A DNA stretch of 10,010 nt, from UHGV virus genome UHGV-0197950; one strand, 5' to 3'. This document shows, piece by piece, positions 1-10,010 of the stretch. Under the pieces are notes generated by a model. That model was not told where the DNA came from. It was given only the letters and a program-made list of their open reading frames with translations, and made no database searches. Made by a program: the position numbers and the translations under genes. The first letter of the stretch is position 1; each line of letters starts with the position of its first letter. This DNA comes from a virus.

Positions 1-217
1 GCTTCGACATCCTTCGCAAATCTTATACAAGTAAGATGGAATAAACCGGGGTCAGAGAGGGGGCTGTTCAAAACCTCGCCAACTCTAGAAATACAATTTA
101 GAGAATTAGGGCGAGCCGTCAAGCGTTTGACAGGGGCCAGGGGGCAGGTATGAATCAAAAATTTGAAGCAGTTAACGCTATTGACAGGAATGTGACAGAT
201 GTCGCTGATGCCAACGA

Positions 218-241
218 TAGATGATAGTTATTTATCATCTA
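218..241. repeat. Perfect 9-bp inverted repeat TAGATGATA-N6-TATCATCTA upstream of the integrase gene; candidate recombination-core or regulator-binding site
   Basis: Read directly: 218-226 tagatgata, spacer gttatt, 233-241 tatcatcta (exact reverse complement). Its position upstream of a P4-type int is where att or arm sites are expected. Function is inferred. Confidence 0.35.
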
Positions 242-243
242 GT

Positions 244-332
244 GTTCGCGGGTGTTCGTGGTAGTGTTTTGTGTGCATTCATCGCTATGATTATAAAGGA
301 AAATTTTGTTTTCCTTGTTCGCTCTTGTTCGT
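244..332 (+). repeat. Four direct copies of TGTTCG(C/T) in two tandem pairs (244-259 and 314-332); candidate integrase arm-type or regulator-binding sites
   Basis: gtgttcgcgggtgttcgtg at 243-260 and ttgttcgctcttgttcgtc at 313-333; also GGTGTAGT twice at 358-377. Binding function is inferred. Confidence 0.3.
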
Positions 333-404
333 CACGGTTTGCCCTTGTACGATGCACGGTGTAGTCAATGGTGTAGTTAATTTTGATGACCGGAAACGCG
401 AAAC

Positions 405-1643
405 ATGAGCAGCGCAATTCATAGACTTAGCGACACTCTTTTACGAAAATTAAGCGGATCACCAACCACAAAAAACGCCTTTTTTAATGACGGTGGCAAT
501 CTTAGCGTAAGACATTCCACCAGCGGCCTGTTAACCTGGTATTTCACTTACAGGGCCGGAACTGGTAGGCAGGTATCACCGGAACGTCTGAGACTGGGCA
601 ATTATCCCGATCTGAGTCTGAAAGCAGCCAGGGAAAAAGCAGCACAGTGTCGCGCCTGGCTGGCTGAGGGGAAAAATCCGCGCTATGAGCTTAATCGTGC
701 TGTACAGGATGCGTTAGCCCCCGTGACAGTTAAGGAAGCGCTCACTTACTGGCTTGAATCGTATGCAAAGGAAAAGCGCACTGACTACGAATCACTGAAA
801 AGCCGGATCAATAAACACATAATCAGCCAGATTGGCGCTTTGCCGTTGGAAAAATGCGAGCTACGGCACTGGTTGGCATGTTTTGACCAGATGGCAAAGC
901 GAAGCCCAGTATCTGCCGGATTTTTGCTACAGGTATGCAAACAGGCGCTTAAGTACTGCCGAAAACGACGATACGCAATCAGCAACGTTCTTGATGATAT
1001 GGTTGTCGGTGATGTGGGAAAAAAAGCAGAAGTGAGCGAGCGCGTACTAACAAATAAGGAGCTTGGGGAATTACTCCGCGCCCTGGATGACAAAATATTC
1101 CCGCCATACTACAGCGCCCTAATTCGCCTCCTGATTGTTTTTGGATGCCGTACCACTGAGCTAAGGCGCTCTGAGGTGCAGGAGTGGGATTTTAAAGAAA
1201 TGCTCTGGACAGTACCGAAGGAGCACAGCAAAACGAAGGTCGCCATATTCAGGCCAATACCGGAAAGCATTTTGCCGTTCGTCACGCAACTGGTGGAGCA
1301 GAACAGACACACAGGCTTATTGCTTGGTGAACTGAAAGGACAATCTTCGGTAGCAGAGTACGGAAGAACAGCGCACAGACGAATTAATCAAGCCCCCTGG
1401 ACGTTACACGATATCCGGCACACATTTACAACCATGCTGAACGATTTAGGCGTGGATCCGCATATTGTCGAGCAGCTTACAGCCCACCAGATGCCAGGGA
1501 TGCAACGAGTCTATAACCACTCCCGCTACCTTGATGCAAAACGTGATGCTCTTAATCTATGGGTAGACCGTCTCGAGCTTCTCCAGAACAATGATGAAAA
1601 AATCGTTGTTATGACCCCGCGAATTTACCCCCAAAATTCTTGA
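405..1643 (+). CDS. int: Site-specific tyrosine recombinase, P4-family integrase
   Basis: 412-aa ORF, ATG 405, TGA 1641-1643. C-terminal catalytic region has typical tyrosine-recombinase motifs (LHDIRHTFTT...HQMPGMQRVYNHSRYL) and the N-terminal region has the arm-binding/SAM-like organisation typical of P4-like integrases. First gene of the island next to a repeat-rich arm region. Confidence 0.9.
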   Translation: MSSAIHRLSDTLLRKLSGSPTTKNAFFNDGGNLSVRHSTSGLLTWYFTYRAGTGRQVSPERLRLGNYPDLSLKAAREKAAQCRAWLAEGKNPRYELNRAVQDALAPVTVKEALTYWLESYAKEKRTDYESLKSRINKHIISQIGALPLEKCELRHWLACFDQMAKRSPVSAGFLLQVCKQALKYCRKRRYAISNVLDDMVVGDVGKKAEVSERVLTNKELGELLRALDDKIFPPYYSALIRLLIVFGCRTTELRRSEVQEWDFKEMLWTVPKEHSKTKVAIFRPIPESILPFVTQLVEQNRHTGLLLGELKGQSSVAEYGRTAHRRINQAPWTLHDIRHTFTTMLNDLGVDPHIVEQLTAHQMPGMQRVYNHSRYLDAKRDALNLWVDRLELLQNNDEKIVVMTPRIYPQNS

Positions 1644-2062
1644 CAAATTACGGCTGTTTTTTCTTTAAGAGATTACAGCCGTGAATAGATCTTAGAATAT
1701 CGGGGAATATCTGCAAATATCTTCTCTTTATATGTGTCAACTATCGAAAAAAATTGAAATGTCTTCTTCTGAGTTCTTATTCTCTGTTTCTTGATTGTTC
1801 CAACACCTGATGGTTTATCTATTTGTTTTTAATGAGGTAATTCAGGTGTCATGCCAAATGACGACATTTTTTGTTGCGTCGCTTAAAAACTCGTGACACG
1901 ATTTTAAACACTAACGAGCTTCTACGAACCTTAGCGAACAAAGCCTTTAGCATGGTTGTGTTTTTAATTTAATAGGTGAAAAAGAATCTAAGTAATATCC
2001 GATCTCATATATCTACAGCTAAGAGAAAAGTTTATATACGTAATTTTTATGTAGGTTTTTGT

Positions 2063-2272
2063 ATGCGTGAAATAAATGAAGATCGCGTAATCCGTGAGGA
2101 TGAATGTCGTAAGTTAACTGGAGTGTGTCGCACTACACGCTACGAACTGGAGAAAAAAGGGAGCTTTCCGTCTCGCCGTAATCTTGGTGGGCGTTCTGTA
2201 GGTTGGCTGCTGTCCGAGGTTATGGAATGGGTTAAAAGCCGGGATCGCATTAATTCAGGTAAGGCAGCGTAA
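2063..2272 (+). CDS. alpA: AlpA-family (Phage_AlpA / MerR-type HTH) transcriptional regulator
   Basis: ~69 aa from ATG 2063: MREINEDRVIREDECRKLTGVCRTTRYELEKKGSFPSRRNLGGRSVGWLLSEVMEWVKSR, matching the AlpA pattern (TG-SR-TIY...G-FP...LG-R-VGW...EV--W). The track ORF starts at 1976 (GTG) but that N-terminal extension lies in AT-rich DNA; the start is uncertain. Stop TAA 2270-2272. Confidence 0.75.
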   Translation: MREINEDRVIREDECRKLTGVCRTTRYELEKKGSFPSRRNLGGRSVGWLLSEVMEWVKSRDRINSGKAA

Positions 2273-2299
2273 AGGGGAGCATATGACATATAAAACAAA

Positions 2300-2319
2300 G
2301 GCGACCGGGGGCGGTCGCC
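2300..2319 (-). terminator. GC-rich perfect hairpin (GGCGACCG-GGGG-CGGTCGCC); possible terminator for leftward transcription from the repressor gene, or for alpA
   Basis: 8-bp perfect stem at 2300-2307 / 2312-2319. On the minus strand it is followed by a U-rich run (CTTTGTTTTA); on the plus strand it lies 28 nt after the alpA stop with no U-tract. Confidence 0.35.
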
Positions 2320-2623
2320 AATGGATACACACTAAACTTGAACGCATCACCAACAATGCCACATTTGCGGCTGGTGGGCAATGTGATCAGTCAGATTTGG
2401 TTCGTTCCAAGGTTTGCAACGAGAGCTTTTTCCTGTGCTCTTTAAGGAATTTCTCAAGAGCAAACGAACAAGGTGCGAATCTTTCTGATTCATGTTCATG
2501 CGCTATATTTTTGCGTCGTCTCTTACGAGTTGGTGATGGTGTTTTGGTTGATTCTGTGTCGCTCATGGTGCTGTCCTGTAAAGCAATGCGCCTGCGTTCC
2601 TCAAACTATGGCGCTGATAGTGG

Positions 2624-2929
2624 CTATTCCTGCTCTTTGACCTTGCGTCGCTGGAGTTCTTCACGCGCGACGGTGACGAGTTGCCCGATCTCCTCGGCGG
2701 CTTTGACTCCGATTTTTTCCACCTGCGCTAGGGCATCGAGCGAAGAAACCAGGAGGTTTTCTCCGCTTCCTTCTGCCTGGCGGCGGGCGATTTCACCGCG
2801 CATGGCGGTTACTATGAATCCGGCGTTGCTTTCACCGTCCAGTTTTACGGATTCCATGCCTTCAATAACATCATGCGGGATCCGAGCTGTCAGTGATTGT
2901 GATTTTGCGTTTTTTGAACCTGTAGCCAT
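2624..2929 (-). CDS. Putative ribbon-helix-helix-type DNA-binding repressor (candidate island immunity/maintenance regulator)
   Basis: 101 aa from ATG (minus) at 2929 with SD GAGAGGA 6 nt upstream: MATGSKNAKSQSLTARIPHDVIEGMESVKLDGESNAGFIVTAMRGEIARRQ..., i.e. an N-terminal beta-strand/helix pattern typical of RHH (Arc/CopG-like) proteins and a charged helical C-terminus. The track start at 2944 is a TTG. Divergent from a region with two palindromic operators. Family assignment is by pattern only. Confidence 0.55.
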   Translation of the reverse strand: MATGSKNAKSQSLTARIPHDVIEGMESVKLDGESNAGFIVTAMRGEIARRQAEGSGENLLVSSLDALAQVEKIGVKAAEEIGQLVTVAREELQRRKVKEQE

Positions 2930-2950
2930 CTGTAATCCTCTCAATGAAAG

Positions 2951-3027
2951 TGTAAGACAATATACACATAAAAAGTCTTACATAAAAGCATTGACATGTA
3001 AGCCACCTATAAATAAAGTTGCTTACA
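2951..3027. promoter_or_regulatory. Divergent control region with two palindromic operators (TGTAAGAC-N16-GTCTTACA and TGTAAGC-N17-GCTTACA) overlapping a TTGACA -35 element
   Basis: Read directly: 2951-2958 tgtaagac / 2975-2982 gtcttaca; 2997-2003 tgtaagc / 3021-3027 gcttaca; TTGACA at 2991-2996 with a -10-like TAAAGT 17 nt downstream (3014-3019) reading towards the + strand gene at 3126. Confidence 0.55.
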
Positions 3028-3125
3028 CCTTGTTAATGCAAGGTGCAGAAACGACGAAACCCCGCACTGTAGGAGCAGTAACGGGGCTTCTAACCACCAA
3101 CGATAGCAAGATTATCGAGGCAGCT

Positions 3126-3329
3126 ATGAGAAATCATACCATACACCCGCAAGGGCGGGACTCGTACAACCTGAATAAATACATCTGGCGTTTTATCGCC
3201 CTGAGCACCGCACAACCGCGCGTGATTCACATCGTGGCCACCAGCGAACAGGAAGCACGCCAGCAATCCCCGGCTGGCTGCGTGATGGTATTCGCCGCCC
3301 GTATTCGTCAGGGGGTGTGCCATGCCTGA
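3126..3329 (+). CDS. Small hypothetical protein (67 aa); first gene of the rightward operon; possibly an Icd-like cell-division-inhibitor-family protein
   Basis: ATG 3126 with GAGG SD 5 nt upstream, in frame with the end of the long 2283-3329 ORF: MRNHTIHPQGRDSYNLNKYIWRFIALSTAQPRVIHIVATSEQEARQQSPAGCVMVFAARIRQGVCHA. The Icd-like label is a recollection, not verified. Confidence 0.45.
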   Translation: MRNHTIHPQGRDSYNLNKYIWRFIALSTAQPRVIHIVATSEQEARQQSPAGCVMVFAARIRQGVCHA

Positions 3330-3642
3330 TATGTCAAATTACCAGTACCTGATTAATCCGCATTTTAACTGTGAGCATGATATTGCTAAAAAGGTTTATT
3401 CCGCTGCGGATGGGGCTACTGACAATATATCAATGGCTGTTGCGTCAATTGGTAGCCTGATGTGGCATGCGTCAGAAAATGAGGACTATGACGAAAAGGC
3501 CATGCGCATTGATATGGGTAATATCGGTTTGTTACTGGCAATGCTTGGACATTTTGATATTTCGTTACGGTGCACCATTGAAAATGCCACAGATGCATTA
3601 AATGCTATAAAGAAAGCGAATACTGATTCAAATCGGGGATAA
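3322..3642 (+). CDS. Hypothetical protein (106 aa)
   Basis: ORF overlapping the upstream gene stop by 8 nt (ATG 3322; alternative ATG 3331), i.e. operon-coupled. Protein-like composition; no motif recognised. Confidence 0.55.
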   Translation: MPDMSNYQYLINPHFNCEHDIAKKVYSAADGATDNISMAVASIGSLMWHASENEDYDEKAMRIDMGNIGLLLAMLGHFDISLRCTIENATDALNAIKKANTDSNRG

Positions 3643-3648
3643 ATAATC

Positions 3649-3948
3649 ATGAGAACGTATTTATCTGGCTTGACTGCCAGCGGTTATGCACACCCCCAAA
3701 TTATCCCCGGCGCTATTTATCTGGATAAGAACGGTAACAGAGTAACGGTAAAAGAACTGATGTTTGACCGTGTGTATTTTATCCGTGATGGCTATTCATT
3801 TCTTAGTTCGCTGAACGTGGAGATCTTTATTTGCAGATTCCGGCGGGAAATCCCGACTTCCAGAAATAACCATGTGTCACGTGTGGATGTGGATAAAAAA
3901 CTACAGGAACTGAAAAACATGATTGCCGCGTGGAGAGAGCAGAAATGA
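3649..3948 (+). CDS. Hypothetical protein (99 aa)
   Basis: ATG 3649 preceded by GGGGA. Its stop TGA 3946-3948 overlaps ATG 3945 of the replication gene (ATGA coupling). No motif recognised. Confidence 0.55.
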   Translation: MRTYLSGLTASGYAHPQIIPGAIYLDKNGNRVTVKELMFDRVYFIRDGYSFLSSLNVEIFICRFRREIPTSRNNHVSRVDVDKKLQELKNMIAAWREQK

Positions 3949-5762
3949 AAAAAGCGCCAAATTTAAAACACCAGCCGCGTGACAAAATGACGGAAGTCAT
4001 CATTTTTGCGGGTAGTGATGCGTGGGCACATGCGAAGCAGTGGCAGGAACAGGACGGGCGACTGGCTGGCGATAACGTGCCACCTGTCTGGCTTGGAGAG
4101 CAACAACTTGCCGAACTGGACAACCTGCAAATCGTACCGGACGGACGCTATCGCGTGCGTCTCTACCAGGCGGGGTTATTGCGTCCGGGGCTTGTTAATA
4201 CCATCGGGCAGAAACTGGCAGCGGCAGGTGTCAGGGATGCTGATTATTACCCTGAAGGAATGCACAGCCAGAAACGGGAGAACTGGCGCGAATATCTGGA
4301 ACGTGAACGGGCAGAGCAGGCGGAAAAGAAAAAGGTAGTTGAACTGCCTGTAAAGAAAAAAGAGCGGGTAAAAGACGATAACGCTTCATCACTGGCGCTT
4401 AACCAGATGGGAGCAAGTCAACGCGGCGAAGTTCTCCTGGCACATTATGGCGGTGAACTGGCGATTCATGCTGACTCTGACACTGTTCACCATTACAACG
4501 GCGTTGTATGGGAGCCAGTACAGGATAAAGAATTACAGCGAGCTATGGCACAGATTTTCATTGATGCGGAGATCAGCTATTCGCAGAACGCCATTAAATC
4601 GGCGGTCGATACCATGAAGTTAAGTTTGCCTGTTATGGGGAATACAGCCCGTAACCTGATTGGATTCAGTAACGGGGTATTTGATACCAGAACAGGTAAT
4701 TTTCGGGAGCATAACAAAAACGACTGGTTGTTAATTGCCAGTGAATTACCTTTCAGCCCACCAGCAGAGGGGGAAACGCTGGCAACACATGCGCCGAATT
4801 TCTGGAAGTGGTTACGCCGTTCGGTGGCTGAGAATGACCGCAAGGCGGATCGCGTACTGGCTGCATTATTCATGGTGCTGGCGAACCGGTACGACTGGCA
4901 GTTATTCATTGAGGTAACAGGTCCAGGGGGAAGTGGTAAAAGCGTGATGGCGGAGATTTGCACCATGCTGGCGGGTAAGGTTAATACAGTATCAGCGAGC
5001 ATGAAGGCGCTGGAAGATGCAAGGGAACGCGCGTTAGTGGTTGGCTTTTCGCTGATTATCATGCCGGATATGACCCGCTACGCTGGTGATGGGGCGGGAA
5101 TTAAGGCTATTACAGGCGGTGACAAGGTGGCAATCGACCCAAAACATAAAGCCCCATATTCAACGCGTATCCCGGCAGTAGTGCTGGCGGTTAACAATAA
5201 CGCTATGTCATTCAGTGACCGCAGTGGGGGGATCTCGCGACGTCGGGTGATATTCAATTTTTCGGAAGTTGTACCGGAGAACGAACGCGATTCAATGCTG
5301 GCGGAAAAAATAGAAGGTGAGCTGGCGGTAGTGATTCGTCATCTGCTTACACGGTTTGCTGACCAGGACGAAGCCAGACGCCTTTTATATGAGCAGCAGA
5401 AATCAGAAGAAGCACTCGCGATAAAGCGTGAAGGTGATTCGCTGGTGGACTTCTGCGGCTATCTCATGGCGTCGGTAATGTGTGATGGCCTGTTAGTGGG
5501 TAATGCTGAAATTGTGCCATTCAGCCCGCGCAGGTATCTCTATCATGCCTATCTGGCTTATATGAAGGCACATGGGTTTGGTAAACCTGTAACACTGACG
5601 CGCTTCGGTAAAGATATGCCGGGGGCAATGGCGGAATATGGCAGGGAGTATATGAAACGGAAAACGAAGCACGGTTTGCGTTCAAACGTGACACTGACGG
5701 AGGAATCAGAAGACTGGATGCCATCATGTGTATCGGTCACTAATGACGATAGCAAAAATTAA
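3945..5762 (+). CDS. Replication initiation protein, phage/plasmid primase-helicase family (P-loop NTPase; pri-rep-like)
   Basis: 605 aa from ATG 3945 (SD GGAGAGAG 3932-3939); the track start 3930 is a GTG. Walker A motif GPGGSGKS (EVTGPGGSGKSVMAE) and a downstream hydrophobic stretch plus acidic residues (LVVGFSLIIMPD) consistent with Walker B. Size and position immediately upstream of an iteron origin match satellite/PICI pri-rep genes. Confidence 0.8.
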   Translation: MKKAPNLKHQPRDKMTEVIIFAGSDAWAHAKQWQEQDGRLAGDNVPPVWLGEQQLAELDNLQIVPDGRYRVRLYQAGLLRPGLVNTIGQKLAAAGVRDADYYPEGMHSQKRENWREYLERERAEQAEKKKVVELPVKKKERVKDDNASSLALNQMGASQRGEVLLAHYGGELAIHADSDTVHHYNGVVWEPVQDKELQRAMAQIFIDAEISYSQNAIKSAVDTMKLSLPVMGNTARNLIGFSNGVFDTRTGNFREHNKNDWLLIASELPFSPPAEGETLATHAPNFWKWLRRSVAENDRKADRVLAALFMVLANRYDWQLFIEVTGPGGSGKSVMAEICTMLAGKVNTVSASMKALEDARERALVVGFSLIIMPDMTRYAGDGAGIKAITGGDKVAIDPKHKAPYSTRIPAVVLAVNNNAMSFSDRSGGISRRRVIFNFSEVVPENERDSMLAEKIEGELAVVIRHLLTRFADQDEARRLLYEQQKSEEALAIKREGDSLVDFCGYLMASVMCDGLLVGNAEIVPFSPRRYLYHAYLAYMKAHGFGKPVTLTRFGKDMPGAMAEYGREYMKRKTKHGLRSNVTLTEESEDWMPSCVSVTNDDSKN

Positions 5763-5776
5763 ACTTATGGAATAAC

Positions 5777-6006
5777 TGTTCACCACTGTTCACCCTGTCA
5801 TAAATATTTTTTATATCAGTATATTATAGGGTGAACAGTTATTTATGAACTGTTCACCAAACTATTCACTGTTCACCTTTTTGATTGTTTATTGAGCTTC
5901 AAGGGTGAACAGTGGTGAACAGTTGGTGAATAGTTTTTGTGAAACTGTTCACCCCTTAACATTATGAATTAAAAGATAAAATATCAAAAGGTGAACAGGT
6001 GAAGGG
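5777..6006. repeat. Iteron array / putative replication origin: about 10 copies of TGTTCACC (both orientations) flanking an AT-rich stretch
   Basis: TGTTCACC at 5777, 5787, 5851, 5870, 5946; GGTGAACA at 5830, 5904, 5914, 5990; degenerate copies at 5861, 5925, 5998; AT-rich 5795-5828. Lies immediately after the replication gene stop (5762). Confidence 0.75.
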
Positions 6007-6049
6007 TTAAAACGCAAAAATTTTAATTTACTGCTGTGAGATAAAGCCT

Positions 6050-6295
6050 ATGACAGCGAAGCACATAAAAAAATCACAATCGCACGCCCTTGATTTGACG
6101 GAACACTGGTTAAGGGTGTCGATAAAAATCATCGACCGCAACGCCGGGGAAGGATATGCGAAAGCACATCCCGAACTGATTAGCGCATTCATGACAACGG
6201 CAGCTGCAAACTTTGCCACGCTGACAGAACGGGAGATTGCCGAAGCGGAACAGGTGACAACCATCAACGTTAAAACCGGAGAGCAGACAGCATGA
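6050..6295 (+). CDS. Hypothetical protein (81 aa), translationally coupled to ssb
   Basis: ATG 6050; stop TGA 6293-6295 overlaps ssb ATG 6292 (ATGA). No motif recognised. Confidence 0.5.
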   Translation: MTAKHIKKSQSHALDLTEHWLRVSIKIIDRNAGEGYAKAHPELISAFMTTAAANFATLTEREIAEAEQVTTINVKTGEQTA

Positions 6296-6714
6296 CAGCA
6301 CAGATAGCGGCTTACGGACGGCTGGTGGCTGATCCGCAGTTAAAGACCACCAGCAAGGGTACACAAATGGCGATGGCTAGTATGGCGGTCCCCCTTCCGT
6401 GCAGCCAGGCAGATGACGGAACGGCGATGATGTGGTTATCCGTCCTGGCGTTTGGCAGACAGGCCGACGCACTGGCAAAACACCACAAAGGCGAACTGGT
6501 GAGCGTGGCGGGTAACATGCAGGTAAGCCAGTGGACAGGCCAGAACGGCGAAACGCGGCAGGGCTGGCAGGTTATCGCAGACAGCGTGATCAGTGCGCGA
6601 ACAGCGCGACCGGGCGGCAAAAAAGGCCAGCAGGGGCAGGCCACTGACGCACTGAACAGGGCAAAACAACAGTCGGGGAATGATGATCCGTACGGCGATA
6701 ATATACCGTTTTAA
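6292..6714 (+). CDS. ssb: Single-stranded DNA-binding protein (SSB-like, OB-fold) with acidic C-terminal tip ...DDPYGDNIPF
   Basis: 140 aa; N-terminal region follows the E. coli SSB pattern (IAAYGRLVADPQLKTTSKG... / WLSVLAFGRQADALAKHHKGELVSVAGNMQVSQWTGQNGETRQGWQVIADSV), a Gly/Gln-rich linker, and a C-terminal IPF tail resembling SSB DDDIPF. Confidence 0.8.
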   Translation: MTAQIAAYGRLVADPQLKTTSKGTQMAMASMAVPLPCSQADDGTAMMWLSVLAFGRQADALAKHHKGELVSVAGNMQVSQWTGQNGETRQGWQVIADSVISARTARPGGKKGQQGQATDALNRAKQQSGNDDPYGDNIPF

Positions 6715-6731
6715 ATTCTGCAAACAAAAAG

Positions 6732-6760
6732 ATGCCGGAAAAAAATAGATTTTCCGGCAT
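6732..6760. terminator. Perfect 11-bp-stem hairpin (ATGCCGGAAAA-N7-TTTTCCGGCAT) between the replication and head modules; possible bidirectional terminator or insulator
   Basis: Arms 6732-6742 and 6750-6760 are exact reverse complements; a T-rich run follows on the minus-strand side (CTTTTTGTTTG); 18 nt after the ssb stop. Confidence 0.4.
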
Positions 6761-6925
6761 GCTACATAAATCCCGACCAAAGGAAGTAAATACATTAACA
6801 CGAATTATCAGCACTGAAGTTGTCGCGGCATATTTTATACAACATTGCACTTGGTTGCATGTATTCGCATAGCAGACATCGGTAATAGAATATATTCACA
6901 ATTATTTGTAATGAATGTAAAGAGG

Positions 6926-7972
6926 ATGAGTATGGTTGACTTATATTCGCCTACACAGCTTGTGCAGGTGGCTAATGCTGAAGATGTGCAAAAAAAATTA
7001 AATGCGTTGTTTACCAGTTTGTTTTTCACTCGCTCGGTAATGTTTGAATCGAGAGACATTATTCTTGATACGATCGACGATCCAAATATCCCGATCGCGG
7101 CGTTTTGCTCTCCTATGGTGGGCAGTAAAGTTTCACGAGATGAGGGATACGAATCAAAAACAATTCGCCCTGGCTATATGAAACCGAAAAGCAGCATTGA
7201 TCCAAATAAGTTAGCTGTGCGCCCTGCTGGTGTATCACCTGAGCAATACAATGCTTTTGGAGCGCGTAATATTAAAGTTAAACAGGCGATTGTAAATCAG
7301 GCTAAAGCTATTCGTGCACGTATTGAATGGCTTGCCGTTCAGGCAATCACAACGGGGAAAAATATCATTGAGGGCGATGGTATTGAACGTTATGAGCTGG
7401 ACTGGAATATTAAACCACAAAATATCATCACTCAGTCTGGCGGTGCTGAGTGGTCAGGTAAGGATAAAGAAGCTTTTGATCCAAATGATGATATTGAGAG
7501 CTACGCAGAATTTAGTGAGGGCGTCACTAATATTATCATTATGGGCGGTAATGTATGGAAGAAATACCGTTCATTCAGGGCGATAAAAGAGGCTCTGGAT
7601 ACTCGTCGTGGTTCTAATTCCGAACTGGAAACGGCCCTTAAAGACCTTGGTGATTCGGTGAGTTTTAAAGGGTATATGGGCGATGTTGCGATTGTTGTTT
7701 ACAGCGGGCGTTATACCGACGAGGACGGAACTGAAAAATATTTCCTTGATCCTGATTTGATGGTGCTTGGCAATACGGCTCTTCAGGGGATTGTCGCTTA
7801 TGGCGGTATTCAGGATCCGGAGCTAATCCGGATGGGGCTGACTAAAGCCGAACTTGCACCGAAAAACTATATTGTGCCTGGTGATCCGGCTATTGAATAT
7901 GTGCAGACACATTCAGCACCACAGCCAATACCGGCCCGCATCAATCGTTTTGTTACCGTTCGCATTGGCTAA
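6926..7972 (+). CDS. Major capsid protein, phage lambda gpE family
   Basis: Begins MSMVDLYSPTQLV (lambda gpE begins MSMYTTAQLL) and shares long blocks with gpE as recalled: NIITQSGGAEWSGKDKEAFDPNDDIESYA, LDTRRGSNSELETALKDLG, GDVAIVVYSG, MVLGNT, PGDPA. Start may be ATG 6926 or 6932 (AGAGG abuts 6926). Stop TAA 7970-7972. Confidence 0.9.
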   Translation: MSMVDLYSPTQLVQVANAEDVQKKLNALFTSLFFTRSVMFESRDIILDTIDDPNIPIAAFCSPMVGSKVSRDEGYESKTIRPGYMKPKSSIDPNKLAVRPAGVSPEQYNAFGARNIKVKQAIVNQAKAIRARIEWLAVQAITTGKNIIEGDGIERYELDWNIKPQNIITQSGGAEWSGKDKEAFDPNDDIESYAEFSEGVTNIIIMGGNVWKKYRSFRAIKEALDTRRGSNSELETALKDLGDSVSFKGYMGDVAIVVYSGRYTDEDGTEKYFLDPDLMVLGNTALQGIVAYGGIQDPELIRMGLTKAELAPKNYIVPGDPAIEYVQTHSAPQPIPARINRFVTVRIG

Positions 7973-7981
7973 GGGGGAGCA

Positions 7982-8323
7982 ATGGCTACTCATTACACTG
8001 AACTCATGTCTGGCACTGAAGCACTGGTTACTACGCTGGGGATATTTTCAGCCAATAAAGGGGTAATACCTGCGTTTACGCCACTGATGCAGGAAGATGC
8101 AACTGGTGCGCTAGTGGTATGGGATGGAACGAGCGCAGGCAAAGCGGTTTATGTTTCCGCTGTACAAATCGACACAGCGAAAAAAACACAGGCACAGGTT
8201 TATAAGACAGGTGTTTTAAATGTTGATGCTCTGAACTGGCCTGAGTCTGTAAAAGAACTGTCGGCAAAGGTTGCCGCGTTTGTTGGCTCAGGTATTTCTG
8301 TTCAGCCGCTGGCTCGTGTGTAA
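7982..8323 (+). CDS. Head decoration protein, phage lambda gpD family
   Basis: 113 aa with SD AAGGGGGAG; motifs shared with gpD as recalled: TPLM, LVVWDGT, YKTG, WPE, AAFVGSGISV. Lies immediately downstream of the capsid gene (order E then D, reversed relative to lambda). Confidence 0.8.
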   Translation: MATHYTELMSGTEALVTTLGIFSANKGVIPAFTPLMQEDATGALVVWDGTSAGKAVYVSAVQIDTAKKTQAQVYKTGVLNVDALNWPESVKELSAKVAAFVGSGISVQPLARV

Positions 8324-8334
8324 AGGGGGATACA

Positions 8335-8718
8335 ATGCAGAATCATTACAATGACCTTAAGCCAATTGCCGAAATGATGTATCCGGATCCAGCAGTAGAG
8401 GAATTAAAGGCTATTGCTGACAAAATGCGTTTAAGTGAACGCCTTGTTGATATGAATCAGGTGATGGAACTTACTACCCTTAGCCGTCGCACATTGCTAA
8501 ACCTTGAGGCTCGCGGAGAGTTCCCCGAACGCGTACAGGTTACGGAAGGGCGTAAGGCCTGGTATTTAAGTGAAGTGATCGACTGGATAAACAATATTCC
8601 TCGAGCTTCTGAATATTGCCGCGTACCTGTCCCAAAAAAGCCAGATGCGGCGCTATGCCTCAAGATTGAGCGTGTACGTCGCAATGCACGGGATGGTCGC
8701 TATAAGTTGATTGGTTGA
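8335..8718 (+). CDS. AlpA-type HTH DNA-binding protein with N-terminal extension (127 aa); candidate late/packaging regulator
   Basis: SD AAAGGGGGA; C-terminal half has an AlpA-like HTH (MELTTLSRRTLLNLEARGEFPERVQVTEGRKAWYLSEVIDWINN). Sits between the decoration gene and cos. Confidence 0.7.
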   Translation: MQNHYNDLKPIAEMMYPDPAVEELKAIADKMRLSERLVDMNQVMELTTLSRRTLLNLEARGEFPERVQVTEGRKAWYLSEVIDWINNIPRASEYCRVPVPKKPDAALCLKIERVRRNARDGRYKLIG

Positions 8719-8741
8719 TGAAATTAGGGCCCGTTCTGGCT

Positions 8742-8810
8742 GGCGGGTCCTTTCCGGCGATCCGGTAGGCTACGGGGCGGCGACCTCGCGGTTTTTCGCT
8801 ATTTATGAGC
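8742..8810. other. Lambda-type cohesive-end site (cosQ/cosN region); cosN 12-nt GGGCGGCGACCT at 8775-8786
   Basis: Island GGCGGGTCCTTTCCGGCGATCCGGTAGGCTACG|GGGCGGCGACCT|CGCGGTTTTTCGCTATTTATGAG versus lambda right end ...CGGGTCCTTTCCGGTGATCCGACAGGTTACG and left end GGGCGGCGACCTCGCGGGTTTTCGCTATTTATGAA as recalled. Identity falls away after about +35, so the cosB region is different. About 145 bp upstream of a Nu1-like gene, as in lambda. Confidence 0.8.
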
Positions 8811-8818
8811 TTTTTCAG

Positions 8819-8833
8819 GGTGGTGGTGGTGGT
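8819..8833. repeat. (GGT)5 trinucleotide tract followed by TTTGTTGTTTG, inside the cosB-equivalent region
   Basis: Read directly: ggtggtggtggtggt at 8819-8833. Downstream are ACACCAACACACCAACC repeats (8877-8893), loosely complementary in composition. Confidence 0.6.
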
Positions 8834-8919
8834 TTTGTTGTTTGCTCTATCTCCATGAATAAAAAGGGAAAGATAACACCAACACACCAACCTGAAACCT
8901 TGACCAAGTTGGGATATTG

Positions 8920-9462
8920 ATGAAATCGCACCTGATGAACAAAAAAACCATGGCGCAAAGCTGCCGGGTAAGTGCTACAGCATTCGACAAGTGGGGAGTG
9001 ACTCCCGTTGAACGTAAAGGCCGTGAGGCGTTTTATGATGTTGCCAGCGTGATAGACAATAGGGTTAACAATGCAATTAGCCAGCTTACAAACGACAAAG
9101 GCGAGATTGATGATGATGAACTCTTACGAGTCAGGATCAGATTACTGACAGCACAGGCGGAGGCGCAGGAACTTAAAAACGAGCGCGATCGCGGTGACGT
9201 GATTGATACAGAGTTTTGCATGTACGCGCTTTCAAAACTGGCGAGTCAGATTTCATCAATCATGGACAGCCTCCCGCTTACTATGCAAAGGAGCTTCCCA
9301 CAGATGACCCCCGTCATGCTGGATGGCCTGAAAAAAGAAGTTGTCAGAGCCTGTAACGCATGCACAAAACTTGATGAAAACATCCCGCGAATGCTGTCCG
9401 ATTATCTGATGGAAACTACCGGAAATGTGCCTGATAAGTTTCAGCCGGATAAAGACAAGTAA
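8920..9462 (+). CDS. Terminase small subunit, lambda Nu1-like
   Basis: Product aligns by eye with lambda Nu1: N-terminus ...NKKTMAQSCRVSATAFDKWGVTPVERKGREAFYDVASVI versus NKKQLADIFGASIRTIQNWQEQGMPVLRGGGKGNEVLYDSAAVI; C-terminal part RLLTAQAEAQELKNERDRGDVIDTEFCMYALSKLASQISSIMDSLPLTMQRSFPQ versus RLTRAQADAQELKNARDSAEVVETAFCTFVLSRIAGEIASILDGLPLSVQRRFPE. Start ambiguous (TTG 8917, ATG 8920, ATG 8935). No TerL gene follows. Confidence 0.85.
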   Translation: MKSHLMNKKTMAQSCRVSATAFDKWGVTPVERKGREAFYDVASVIDNRVNNAISQLTNDKGEIDDDELLRVRIRLLTAQAEAQELKNERDRGDVIDTEFCMYALSKLASQISSIMDSLPLTMQRSFPQMTPVMLDGLKKEVVRACNACTKLDENIPRMLSDYLMETTGNVPDKFQPDKDK

Positions 9463-9480
9463 CGTAGTGCACAATGACCG

Positions 9481-9502
9481 AAGCCAGTTTACTGACTGGC
9501 TT
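9481..9502 (+). terminator. Hairpin (AAGCCAGT-N6-ACTGGCTT) 19 nt after the terS stop; possible terminator or RNA-stability element
   Basis: Perfect 8-bp stem read directly; the downstream sequence is only weakly T-rich (TTCAGCGTTGCG). Confidence 0.3.
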
Positions 9503-9698
9503 TCAGCGTTGCGCTGGTGGGCGTTATGCGTCAGTGATGAACAAAAAACAATCGAAATCGACACCGAAAAATAAAACATCAAGTCATATCAATATATTGC
9601 ATTGGTGGTGATGACGAATAAAAATGCAAAAACTAGCCTTTTTCCGCGATGCTCCCGCCCCGTGGCAGGGCACCCCACAAGGAGGACCCGCCATCACT

Positions 9699-10010
9699 AT
9701 GGAGGCCATGACCATGACCATGACCATGACCGAGACCGAAGCGCTCGGGATAATCCGCAGTATTACCGGAATCAGCCAGCAGGCTGGCGAACAGGAGGCC
9801 ACGCAGCCGGACAGCGTGATAGCCGAAAATTACGCGCGTGTTGTTGCTGAGGTGATGCGCCGTGATGGTATTGAGCTTAACGGCGTGGATATGCGCAACA
9901 TACGAACCAGAGTCCTTGAGTTGCTGGCATACCGTCGCCGTTCTCAACAACGGAGGGAGAGCGCGAAAAGTACTTACCAGTGGAAGAAGCCGGAACGACT
10001 GCGGCGGTAA
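9699..10010 (+). CDS. Hypothetical protein (~103 aa) beginning in a hexanucleotide repeat (MEAMTMTMTMTETE...)
   Basis: ORF ends TAA 10008-10010. Candidate starts are ATG 9699 (SD AAGGAGGA 9679-9686) or ATG 9714 (SD GGAGG 9701-9705). The track start 9624 lies in probable non-coding DNA. No confident family assignment. Confidence 0.5.
   Translation: MEAMTMTMTMTETEALGIIRSITGISQQAGEQEATQPDSVIAENYARVVAEVMRRDGIELNGVDMRNIRTRVLELLAYRRRSQQRRESAKSTYQWKKPERLRR
9707..9730 (+). repeat. (CATGAC)4 hexanucleotide tandem repeat, with a degenerate fifth unit to 9736, at the 5' end of the last gene
   Basis: Read directly: catgac x4 at 9707-9730 then cgagac; encodes MT dipeptide repeats and provides four in-frame ATG codons. 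Confidence 0.7.

Follow-up and report, generated by a model that had tools for sequence, protein, structure and literature searches.

The intergenic stretch that follows the primase-helicase gene of virus genome UHGV-0197950, at positions 5763-6049 of the 10,010 nucleotides of DNA analysed here (hereafter "the window"), is, judging from its sequence, very probably the vegetative replication origin of an E. coli phage-inducible chromosomal island (PICI). In PICIs the origin directly follows the 3' end of the gene for the replication initiator (PMC6092414), and in the window this stretch lies directly 3' of pri-rep and carries short iterons that flank AT-rich DNA. The preliminary description had proposed an iteron origin of a satellite or plasmid, recognised by its cognate initiator, and for a satellite this proposal is supported by genomic context, by homology, and by co-variation of the repeats with the initiator. 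As a call it is an ordinary one, routine in kind; function has been demonstrated in a sister island, and octamers of this type are already present in a published PICI allele and in satellite phage P4.

Residence in a PICI is indicated first by the attachment site. The cspD-clpS locus is a PICI attachment site with the core ATGATAGTTAT (Table S1 of Fillol-Salom et al. 2018, ISME J, PMC6092414), and since the same core is found at 221-231, matching the entry for cspD-clpS in that table, the window can be assigned to a Gram-negative PICI of E. coli. It also has the other hallmarks of such elements, namely an island of about 10 kb with int, alpA and pri-rep, rightward unidirectional genes and a PICI-specific attC. 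Pfam matches and RefSeq context give the gene order int, alpA, DUF4222, pri-rep, ori, hypothetical gene, ssb, capsid-E-like gene, decoration-D-like gene and terS, with Pfam identifying a tyrosine integrase with an arm-binding domain (405-1643), AlpA (1976-2272), DUF4222 (3649-3948), a lambda E-like capsid protein (6845-7972) and a lambda D-like decoration protein (7982-8323); an HTH protein is encoded at 8335-8718. The replicon (3900-6300) is 99.9% identical to sequences in E. coli chromosomes, where the island is flanked by cspD/yljB and clpS and has terS at its end (RefSeq), and the coordinates of the gene at 3945-5762 agree with the RefSeq annotation of an identical island. The island is a mosaic, combining the int and att (cspD-clpS) of EcCIIHE3034 with an RM13514-like replicon, while the replicon of EcCIIHE3034 itself is of the CFT073 type. 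At a coverage of at least 80% of the query, this replicon class is found in 655-668 complete E. coli genomes.

The initiator gene, pri-rep (3945-5762, plus strand), has Pfam matches to D5_N, DUF5906 (SF3 helicase) and Pox_D5, as well as a weak one to PPV_E1_C. Its 605-aa product comprises a TOPRIM-like N-terminal domain (aa 1-131), a D5_N and SF3 helicase region (aa 167-454) with the Walker A motif GPGGSGKS at aa 326-333, and a C-terminal origin-binding domain. Among solved structures (phmmer against the PDB), the best match of Pri-Rep is 1ka8_A, the origin-binding domain of P4 alpha (E 1.4e-24, chain residues 2-99); PDB entry 1KA8 is reportedly the structure determined for that domain. The corresponding part of Pri-Rep, aa 497-593 (5433-5723, plus strand), is thus a predicted winged-helix origin-binding domain homologous to that of alpha. 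AlphaFold gave no usable model of the C-terminal domain (pLDDT 38), the alignment being shallow and its sequences at least 77% identical. On the other side of the origin lie a gene for an 81-aa hypothetical protein (6050-6295, plus strand), directly 3' of the origin, whose position is kept in sister PICIs and whose product is without a Pfam family, and the island's own SSB gene, which is part of the replication module (6292-6714, plus strand; Pfam SSB, E 1.7e-15).

Exact copies of the octamer TGTTCACC (or its reverse form, GGTGAACA) occur ten times in the whole window, and nine of these fall within 5777-5997; in dinucleotide-preserving shuffles of the whole window (n=200) the mean was 0.32 and the maximum 3. 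The only copy outside the cluster is a single octamer at 4484, inside pri-rep. The earlier count of at least nine exact 8-bp units plus degenerate copies in both orientations holds, with five exact units on the plus strand (5777-5784, 5787-5794, 5851-5858, 5870-5877 and 5946-5953), four on the minus strand (5830-5837, 5904-5911, 5914-5921 and 5990-5997) and three degenerate ones, which are TATTCACT at 5863-5870 (plus strand, overlapping the next copy by 1 nt), TATTCACC at 5925-5932 (minus) and CCTTCACC at 5998-6005 (minus). The unit at 5946-5953 is followed by CCTTAAC, as in the P4 ori. According to a repeat finder, the conserved repeat unit is 10 nt rather than 8, ACTGTTCACC. That the cluster begins just after the stop of the replication gene is likewise correct; 14 nt separate the end of the stop codon (5762) from the start of the first octamer (5777).

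The origin region occupies the whole stretch between pri-rep and the downstream gene (5763-6049, 32% GC), and GC content across it is 26-37%, versus about 50% in the flanks. The preliminary description recognised one AT-rich core, which is indeed present at 5795-5829 (35 bp, 17% GC), but it missed a second, symmetric one at 5954-5989 (36 bp, 17% GC); both are candidate DNA-unwinding elements, the GC content of the window as a whole being 47%. Each core belongs to a module of about 115 bp. In the left module (5768-5885, read on the minus strand) three iterons are followed by 13 bp, one opposite iteron, the 35-bp AT-rich core and two more iterons, and the right module (5895-6012, plus strand) has the same layout and is collinear with the block of type 1 repeats in the P4 ori. 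The two modules are 74% identical, far above shuffled controls. Since they resemble both each other and the P4 ori, the origin is best described as two inverted copies of a P4-ori-like module on either side of a T-rich central spacer (5878-5903, 26 bp, 27% GC) that forms the axis of the inverted repeat. This symmetry also explains why a single strand of the origin folds far better than shuffled sequences (z = -7.3) and why Rfam returns matches to miRNA hairpins only, all far below threshold (best 42 bits against a gathering score of 249 bits). We rejected an RNA gene as the reading of these matches, the sub-threshold hairpin scores reflecting the long palindrome.

Searches of 5763-6049 found neither a DnaA box nor an IHF consensus, and in 5600-6200 there was no intrinsic terminator and no sigma-70-like promoter (0 found versus 1.5 expected). 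With neither found in that interval, transcription probably runs from pri-rep across the origin to the genes downstream. The same observations bear on a different function for the repeats, as operators through which Pri-Rep, AlpA or the HTH protein of 8335-8718 would control transcription of the hypothetical gene, ssb and the capsid genes, with no origin involved. The repeats do lie between two genes on the same strand with no terminator separating them from pri-rep, and initiators that bind iterons often autoregulate; however, the interval gave no sigma-70-like promoter, a 240-bp palindrome that holds twelve sites and two AT-rich cores has the anatomy of an origin rather than of an operator, the sequence of the repeats follows the C-terminal domain of Pri-Rep, and the homologous repeats of P4 are replication sites. 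We therefore consider operators alone highly improbable, although the repeats may have a secondary regulatory role beside their function as an origin.

The closest experimental counterpart of the proposed origin is that of EcCICFT073, where a plasmid carrying pri-rep and ori replicates but fails to do so once ori or pri is deleted (delta-ori, delta-pri; Fillol-Salom et al. 2018, PMC6092414). In both EcCICFT073 and EcCIIHE3034 the gene order is DUF4222, a primase-family gene, a gap of about 288 bp, a small hypothetical gene and ssb. EcCICFT073 thus has the same flanking gene neighbourhood as the window and a gap that is collinear with the origin of the window, in which TGTCTACC/GGTAGACA units take the order and the orientation of the TGTTCACC units, giving the same two-module plan with an octamer of its own. 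It differs in that octamer (TGTCTACC rather than TGTTCACC) and in its Pri-Rep, which is only 49% identical to that of the window. Iterons with the sequence TGTTCACC, in the layout of the window, are found in EcCIRM13514, whose Pri-Rep is one of four alleles published. The published scheme has one AT-rich region flanked by two sets of iterons (PMC6092414), whereas we observe two inverted modules with one core each.

A second counterpart is the 11.6-kb genome of P4, which contains the identical octamer. In the P4 record (NC_001609) TGTTCACC is annotated as "ori type 1 repeat", and its 11 exact copies are distributed over ori (9310-9413) and crr (4291-4590), the latter directly downstream of the alpha gene. 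P4 ori (9300-9420) is 73% identical to 5895-6012 over 117 aligned positions and 75% identical to the reverse complement of 5768-5885, in both cases far above shuffles. The P4 ori and the right module share three GGTGAACA units, a spacer of 13-14 bp and one TGTTCACC followed by CC(C/T)TTAAC, and then an AT-rich spacer of about 36 bp and two further GGTGAACA. The similarity extends to the initiators, with 50% identity between P4 alpha 320-771 and Pri-Rep 145-595 (452 aa) and 51% over the last ~75 aa, that is, the end of the origin-binding domain and the tail. Pri-Rep has no counterpart of alpha residues 1-319; the N-terminal primase region of alpha, of about 300 aa, is replaced by the TOPRIM-like domain of about 130 aa. 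Beyond the replicon the two elements diverge, as none of psu, delta, sid and epsilon was found in the window, which has the lambda E/D-like capsid genes and terS instead. Type 2 repeats of P4 (CACTTAAAGY, at most one mismatch) were not found in the origin of the window either.

In both elements a cluster of repeats lies just 3' of the initiator gene, and this raises an alternative in which the cluster is a cis-acting replication enhancer like crr and initiation takes place elsewhere in the island. The block directly downstream of P4 alpha is indeed crr, an enhancer required in cis and not the start site, and the cluster of the window occupies the crr position. In P4, however, the sites are divided between ori and crr, which are separated by 4.7 kb, crr consisting of a 120-bp direct duplication, whereas the window has a single cluster that is an inverted duplication, the lone octamer in pri-rep being the only other copy, and its modules align better with P4 ori than with the repeats of crr. 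The final ~0.7 kb of the island, on the attR side, falls outside the window and was viewed in an identical island (L001), where no comparable repeat cluster was seen by eye. The pri-ori fragment of EcCICFT073 sustains plasmid replication on its own and deletion of the region abolishes it (PMC6092414). An enhancer remote from the true start site is thus very unlikely, and we regard the cluster as the origin itself.

It is tempting to go one step further and propose that P4-like elements and this class of PICIs share one origin-recognition code, given the common octamer, the related ori modules and origin-binding domains, and a segment of the form ..TK.G.. in both initiators; we put this forward tentatively, as possible rather than probable. 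If it were true, P4, whether resident or incoming, could fire, titrate or block the PICI origin, and vice versa, so that satellites of different helpers (P2 versus lambdoid phages) could cross-activate each other, be incompatible or interfere, and the PICI and P4 replicons would be homologues exchanged between families. The replicons of PICIs and P4 have been said to have "evolved independently" (PMC6092414), and the primase-replicases of satellite families have been suggested to be analogues (PMC10085698). A P4-type ori is present in 1051 of 5426 complete E. coli genomes (981 with at least 80% of the query covered), and since both this ori and the PICI class counted above are common, co-residence in one genome is likely.

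Conservation and co-variation were examined in 323 loci that encode a relative of the C-terminal domain and have at least 250 nt downstream, collected from IMG/VR contigs and E. coli genomes and representing 152 distinct combinations of C-terminus and downstream 300 nt. A scan of genome contigs with a Pri-Rep alignment gave 2 loci only, the chosen patterns being N-terminal, and most contigs retrieved by a second scan of viral contigs, using the RM13514 allele, had already come up in the first. A pattern scan for CTGTTCATNNCTGTTCAT gave 44 loci, mostly chance matches, among which were two informative P4-like elements. The origins of the class found in the window comprise 66 distinct sequences that are 63-99.7% identical to it. 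They differ from the window in 3.8% of cells in iteron columns versus 10.1% in spacers (Mann-Whitney p 1.3e-4, a generous value since related sequences and neighbouring columns were treated as independent, though the direction is clear), which supports purifying selection on the repeats.

Across the 152 combinations, the sequence of the iterons tracks a C-terminal segment of the initiator, so that the comparison of related islands suggested at the outset comes out in favour of a cognate pair. In the window this segment is YMKRKTKHGLRSNVTL (aa 569-584; 5649-5696, plus strand; delimited by aligning alleles against iterons), and within it T574-K575-H576-G577 is the putative wing tip, as placed by winged-helix topology. 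Alleles of the form (K/R)(K/R/H)TK(H/E/Q)G, which include the window class, RM13514, contigs at 76-79% identity and P4 alpha, go with TGTTCACC, and this is true of all ..TK.G.. alleles in the set. In one PICI contig (L064), whose Pri-Rep is 94% identical and has 10 of its 34 differences within aa 550-600, TK is changed to TT (KRTTAG) and the iterons are TGTTCAT(T/C) at every position, in the same layout. TK is changed to TN (RRTNQG) in the two P4-like elements (L190 and L205), and there the iterons are ATGAACA or AGTGAA(C/T)A, that is, TGTTCAT or TGTTCAYT. CFT073-type alleles fall into two groups, NVNDFGKAMK with TGTCTACC (29 distinct origins) and NVA(E/D)FSKAMK with CCTCTACC/CATCTACC (33 distinct origins). 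A third type of tail, KCTKGPDKGR (L086), accompanies TGTCTAC/TCTACCAA in a different arrangement.

Loss of the lysine (to Thr or Asn) thus coincides with loss of the terminal CC (to T(N)) in two independent lineages; in the P4-like elements the ori lies 4.3-4.4 kb from the 3' end of alpha. From general winged-helix topology we infer that the octamer is contacted at its 3' end by the C-terminal beta-hairpin (the wing) and at its 5' end by the helix region that precedes the wing. Since the 3' end of pri-rep adjoins the origin in PICIs, one recombination tract can carry both, and the co-variation among PICIs could partly reflect this physical linkage, the two being swappable as one block. The P4-like cases, with an ori about 4.4 kb away, weaken this objection without removing it, and the PICI case with a TT wing is a single contig. 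Pri-Rep aa 497-605 would be expected to bind TGTTCACC only, as against TGTTCATT and TGTCTACC, and K575T or K575N would be predicted to shift its preference towards TGTTCAT.

These observations can be combined into a mechanism. Upon induction by a helper phage Pri-Rep would be made, and its C-terminal winged helix would bind the 8-10-bp iterons, (AC)TGTTCACC. The twelve sites would act as two inverted modules, each of about 115 bp and wrapped around its own 35-36-bp AT-rich core, and if SF3 initiators with an origin-binding domain of their own are a guide, this symmetric layout may allow the helicase part, of the SF3 (D5/E1) type, to be loaded, probably in the form of two opposed hexamers. The hexamers would then melt the AT-rich cores, the presumed melting site, and start bidirectional replication without DnaA from a source of priming that we likewise assume, and the island SSB encoded just downstream would coat the opened strands.

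Such a scheme has parallels in several known systems. SV40 large T antigen and papillomavirus E1 are, like the initiator of the window, SF3 helicases with their own origin-binding domain that act on short inverted sites beside AT-rich DNA; this likeness is an analogy of layout only, the sites having no sequence relationship, and double-hexamer loading in the window is suggested by that analogy. Iteron plasmids (pPS10, RK2, F, P1, R6K) and the lambda ori also have an initiator that binds repeats beside an AT-rich unwinding element. Their iterons are 17-22 bp and mostly direct, and their initiators are Rep_3/WH1-WH2 proteins or lambda O, which recruit host DnaB, usually with DnaA boxes. In contrast, the sites of the window measure 8-10 bp and occur in both orientations, the origin lacks a DnaA box and its initiator is a D5/SF3 helicase in its own right, so that the features of a Rep_3-type iteron origin (17-22-bp direct iterons, a WH1-WH2 initiator and DnaA boxes) are absent. 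[quoted passage not shown] The position 3' of the rep gene is that seen in the window, whereas the iteron sequences and the host clade are unrelated, and in SaPIs pri and rep are usually separate genes.

A text search of the literature for TGTTCACC retrieved unrelated primer sequences only. Among the papers whose text was searched, none notes that P4 and PICI iterons are identical, and the identity could be visible in the list of iterons in Fig. 2a of PMC6092414. As far as these sources extend, then, the explicit identity of the iterons with those of P4, together with the homology that links origin module and origin-binding domain to P4, looks new, and so do the description of two modules and the residue-to-base co-variation. 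In practical terms, over 600 complete E. coli genomes contain a 290-bp gap without annotation that can now be labelled as a PICI ori. Through the repeat, which equals the P4 type 1 repeat, and through the homologous module and origin-binding domain, the PICI and P4 replicons are tied together, and cross-talk between co-resident satellites is predicted. The natural series of alleles amounts to a specificity map for a winged-helix initiator (TK with ..ACC, TT or TN with ..AT, NVNDFG with TGT.. and NVAEFS with CCT/CAT..), which would be useful for orthogonal replicons, and the inverted two-module layout points to a way in which an initiator of the SF3 primase-helicase type might be loaded symmetrically in bacteria.

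A further set of repeats, beside int, had been thought to share the TGTTC core of the iterons. This does not stand, since the int-proximal units are TGTTCG (at 243, 253, 316 and 326), a different motif, which is not enriched in the window (9 found versus 5.5 expected). These repeats are base-for-base identical in EcCIIHE3034, which has the same integrase and TGTCTACC iterons, and a TTGTTCG pair and a GGTGTAGTTAAT pair recur beside the att core of the opposite island end (L001 18670-18725 and 18797-18807). We therefore rejected a link between them and the iterons, as TGTTCG is unchanged in EcCIIHE3034 and recurs at attR. The supposed common core was also one reason to consider that the repeats downstream of pri-rep might serve recombination, packaging or partition (as integrase arm sites, cos/pac or a centromere), another being that satellites need a packaging site. 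Yet the int-proximal repeats follow int and att and not the replicon, the island has no ParA/ParB genes, and terS and its surroundings are 3 kb away, all of which makes such a function for the cluster extremely improbable, and its reading as an origin is retained. The int-proximal TGTTCG repeats, which follow the integrase and recur at attR, look like arm-type sites of that integrase.

When the whole window (1-10010) is compared with the published PICI EcCIIHE3034, the two islands have the E. coli cspD-clpS attachment site and AlpA in common and carry near-identical integrases, but the replicon allele differs, being of the TGTTCACC type in the window and of the TGTCTACC type in EcCIIHE3034. 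The island is thus a mosaic, and the replication module is a cassette that PICIs exchange.

At locus L086 (NZ_CP069996.1, 2870-3176), the Pri-Rep gene is about 85% identical to that of the window at the DNA level up to codon ~570, beyond which its C-terminal tail (KCTKGPDKGR) differs, and its origin has TCTACC-type repeats in an arrangement unlike that of the window, with an IS3 insertion 3' of the origin. The change at codon ~570 shows that the swap point is within the origin-binding domain. The published PICI allele EcCI042 (L090, 5204-5403) has a RepA-family helicase in place of the window's D5-type protein and origin repeats of the form AAAGTGAGG; its replicon is thus unrelated to that of the window, although it occupies the same slot.

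When the ori of satellite phage P4 alone was used as a blastn query against E. coli genomes, weak matches (H123-H125; 79-86% identity over 75-132 nt) fell at candidate PICI-origin positions, for instance at about 3.04 Mb, resembling cspD-clpS islands, and are consistent with DNA-level homology of the P4 and PICI origin types.

At the island ends, direct (T)TGTTCG pairs lie near attL (243-258 and 316-331) and one more near attR (18670-18725 in L001, a chromosomal locus with an identical island), while a tandem GGTGTAGT(C/T)AATGGTGTAGTTAAT is located just 5' of int (359-382) and occurs a second time adjoining attR. Both elements are also present in EcCIIHE3034 and, in part, in EcCICFT073, which makes a role as integrase arm-type sites probable. 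Table S1 of PMC6092414 lists the sequence of the tandem as the "att site core" of EcCIDI14.

A 348-aa ORF (2283-3329) from the mechanical ORF listing is probably spurious; it has no Pfam match and is absent from the RefSeq annotation, in which its 3' end (about 3126-3329) is instead occupied by a short Icd-like gene and the opposite strand carries a YlcI/YnfO gene. Directly 3' of the origin, an 81-aa gene without family assignment (6050-6295) overlaps the start of ssb; its position is kept in the CFT073, IHE3034 and RM13514-type islands, and its product may be a replication accessory factor.
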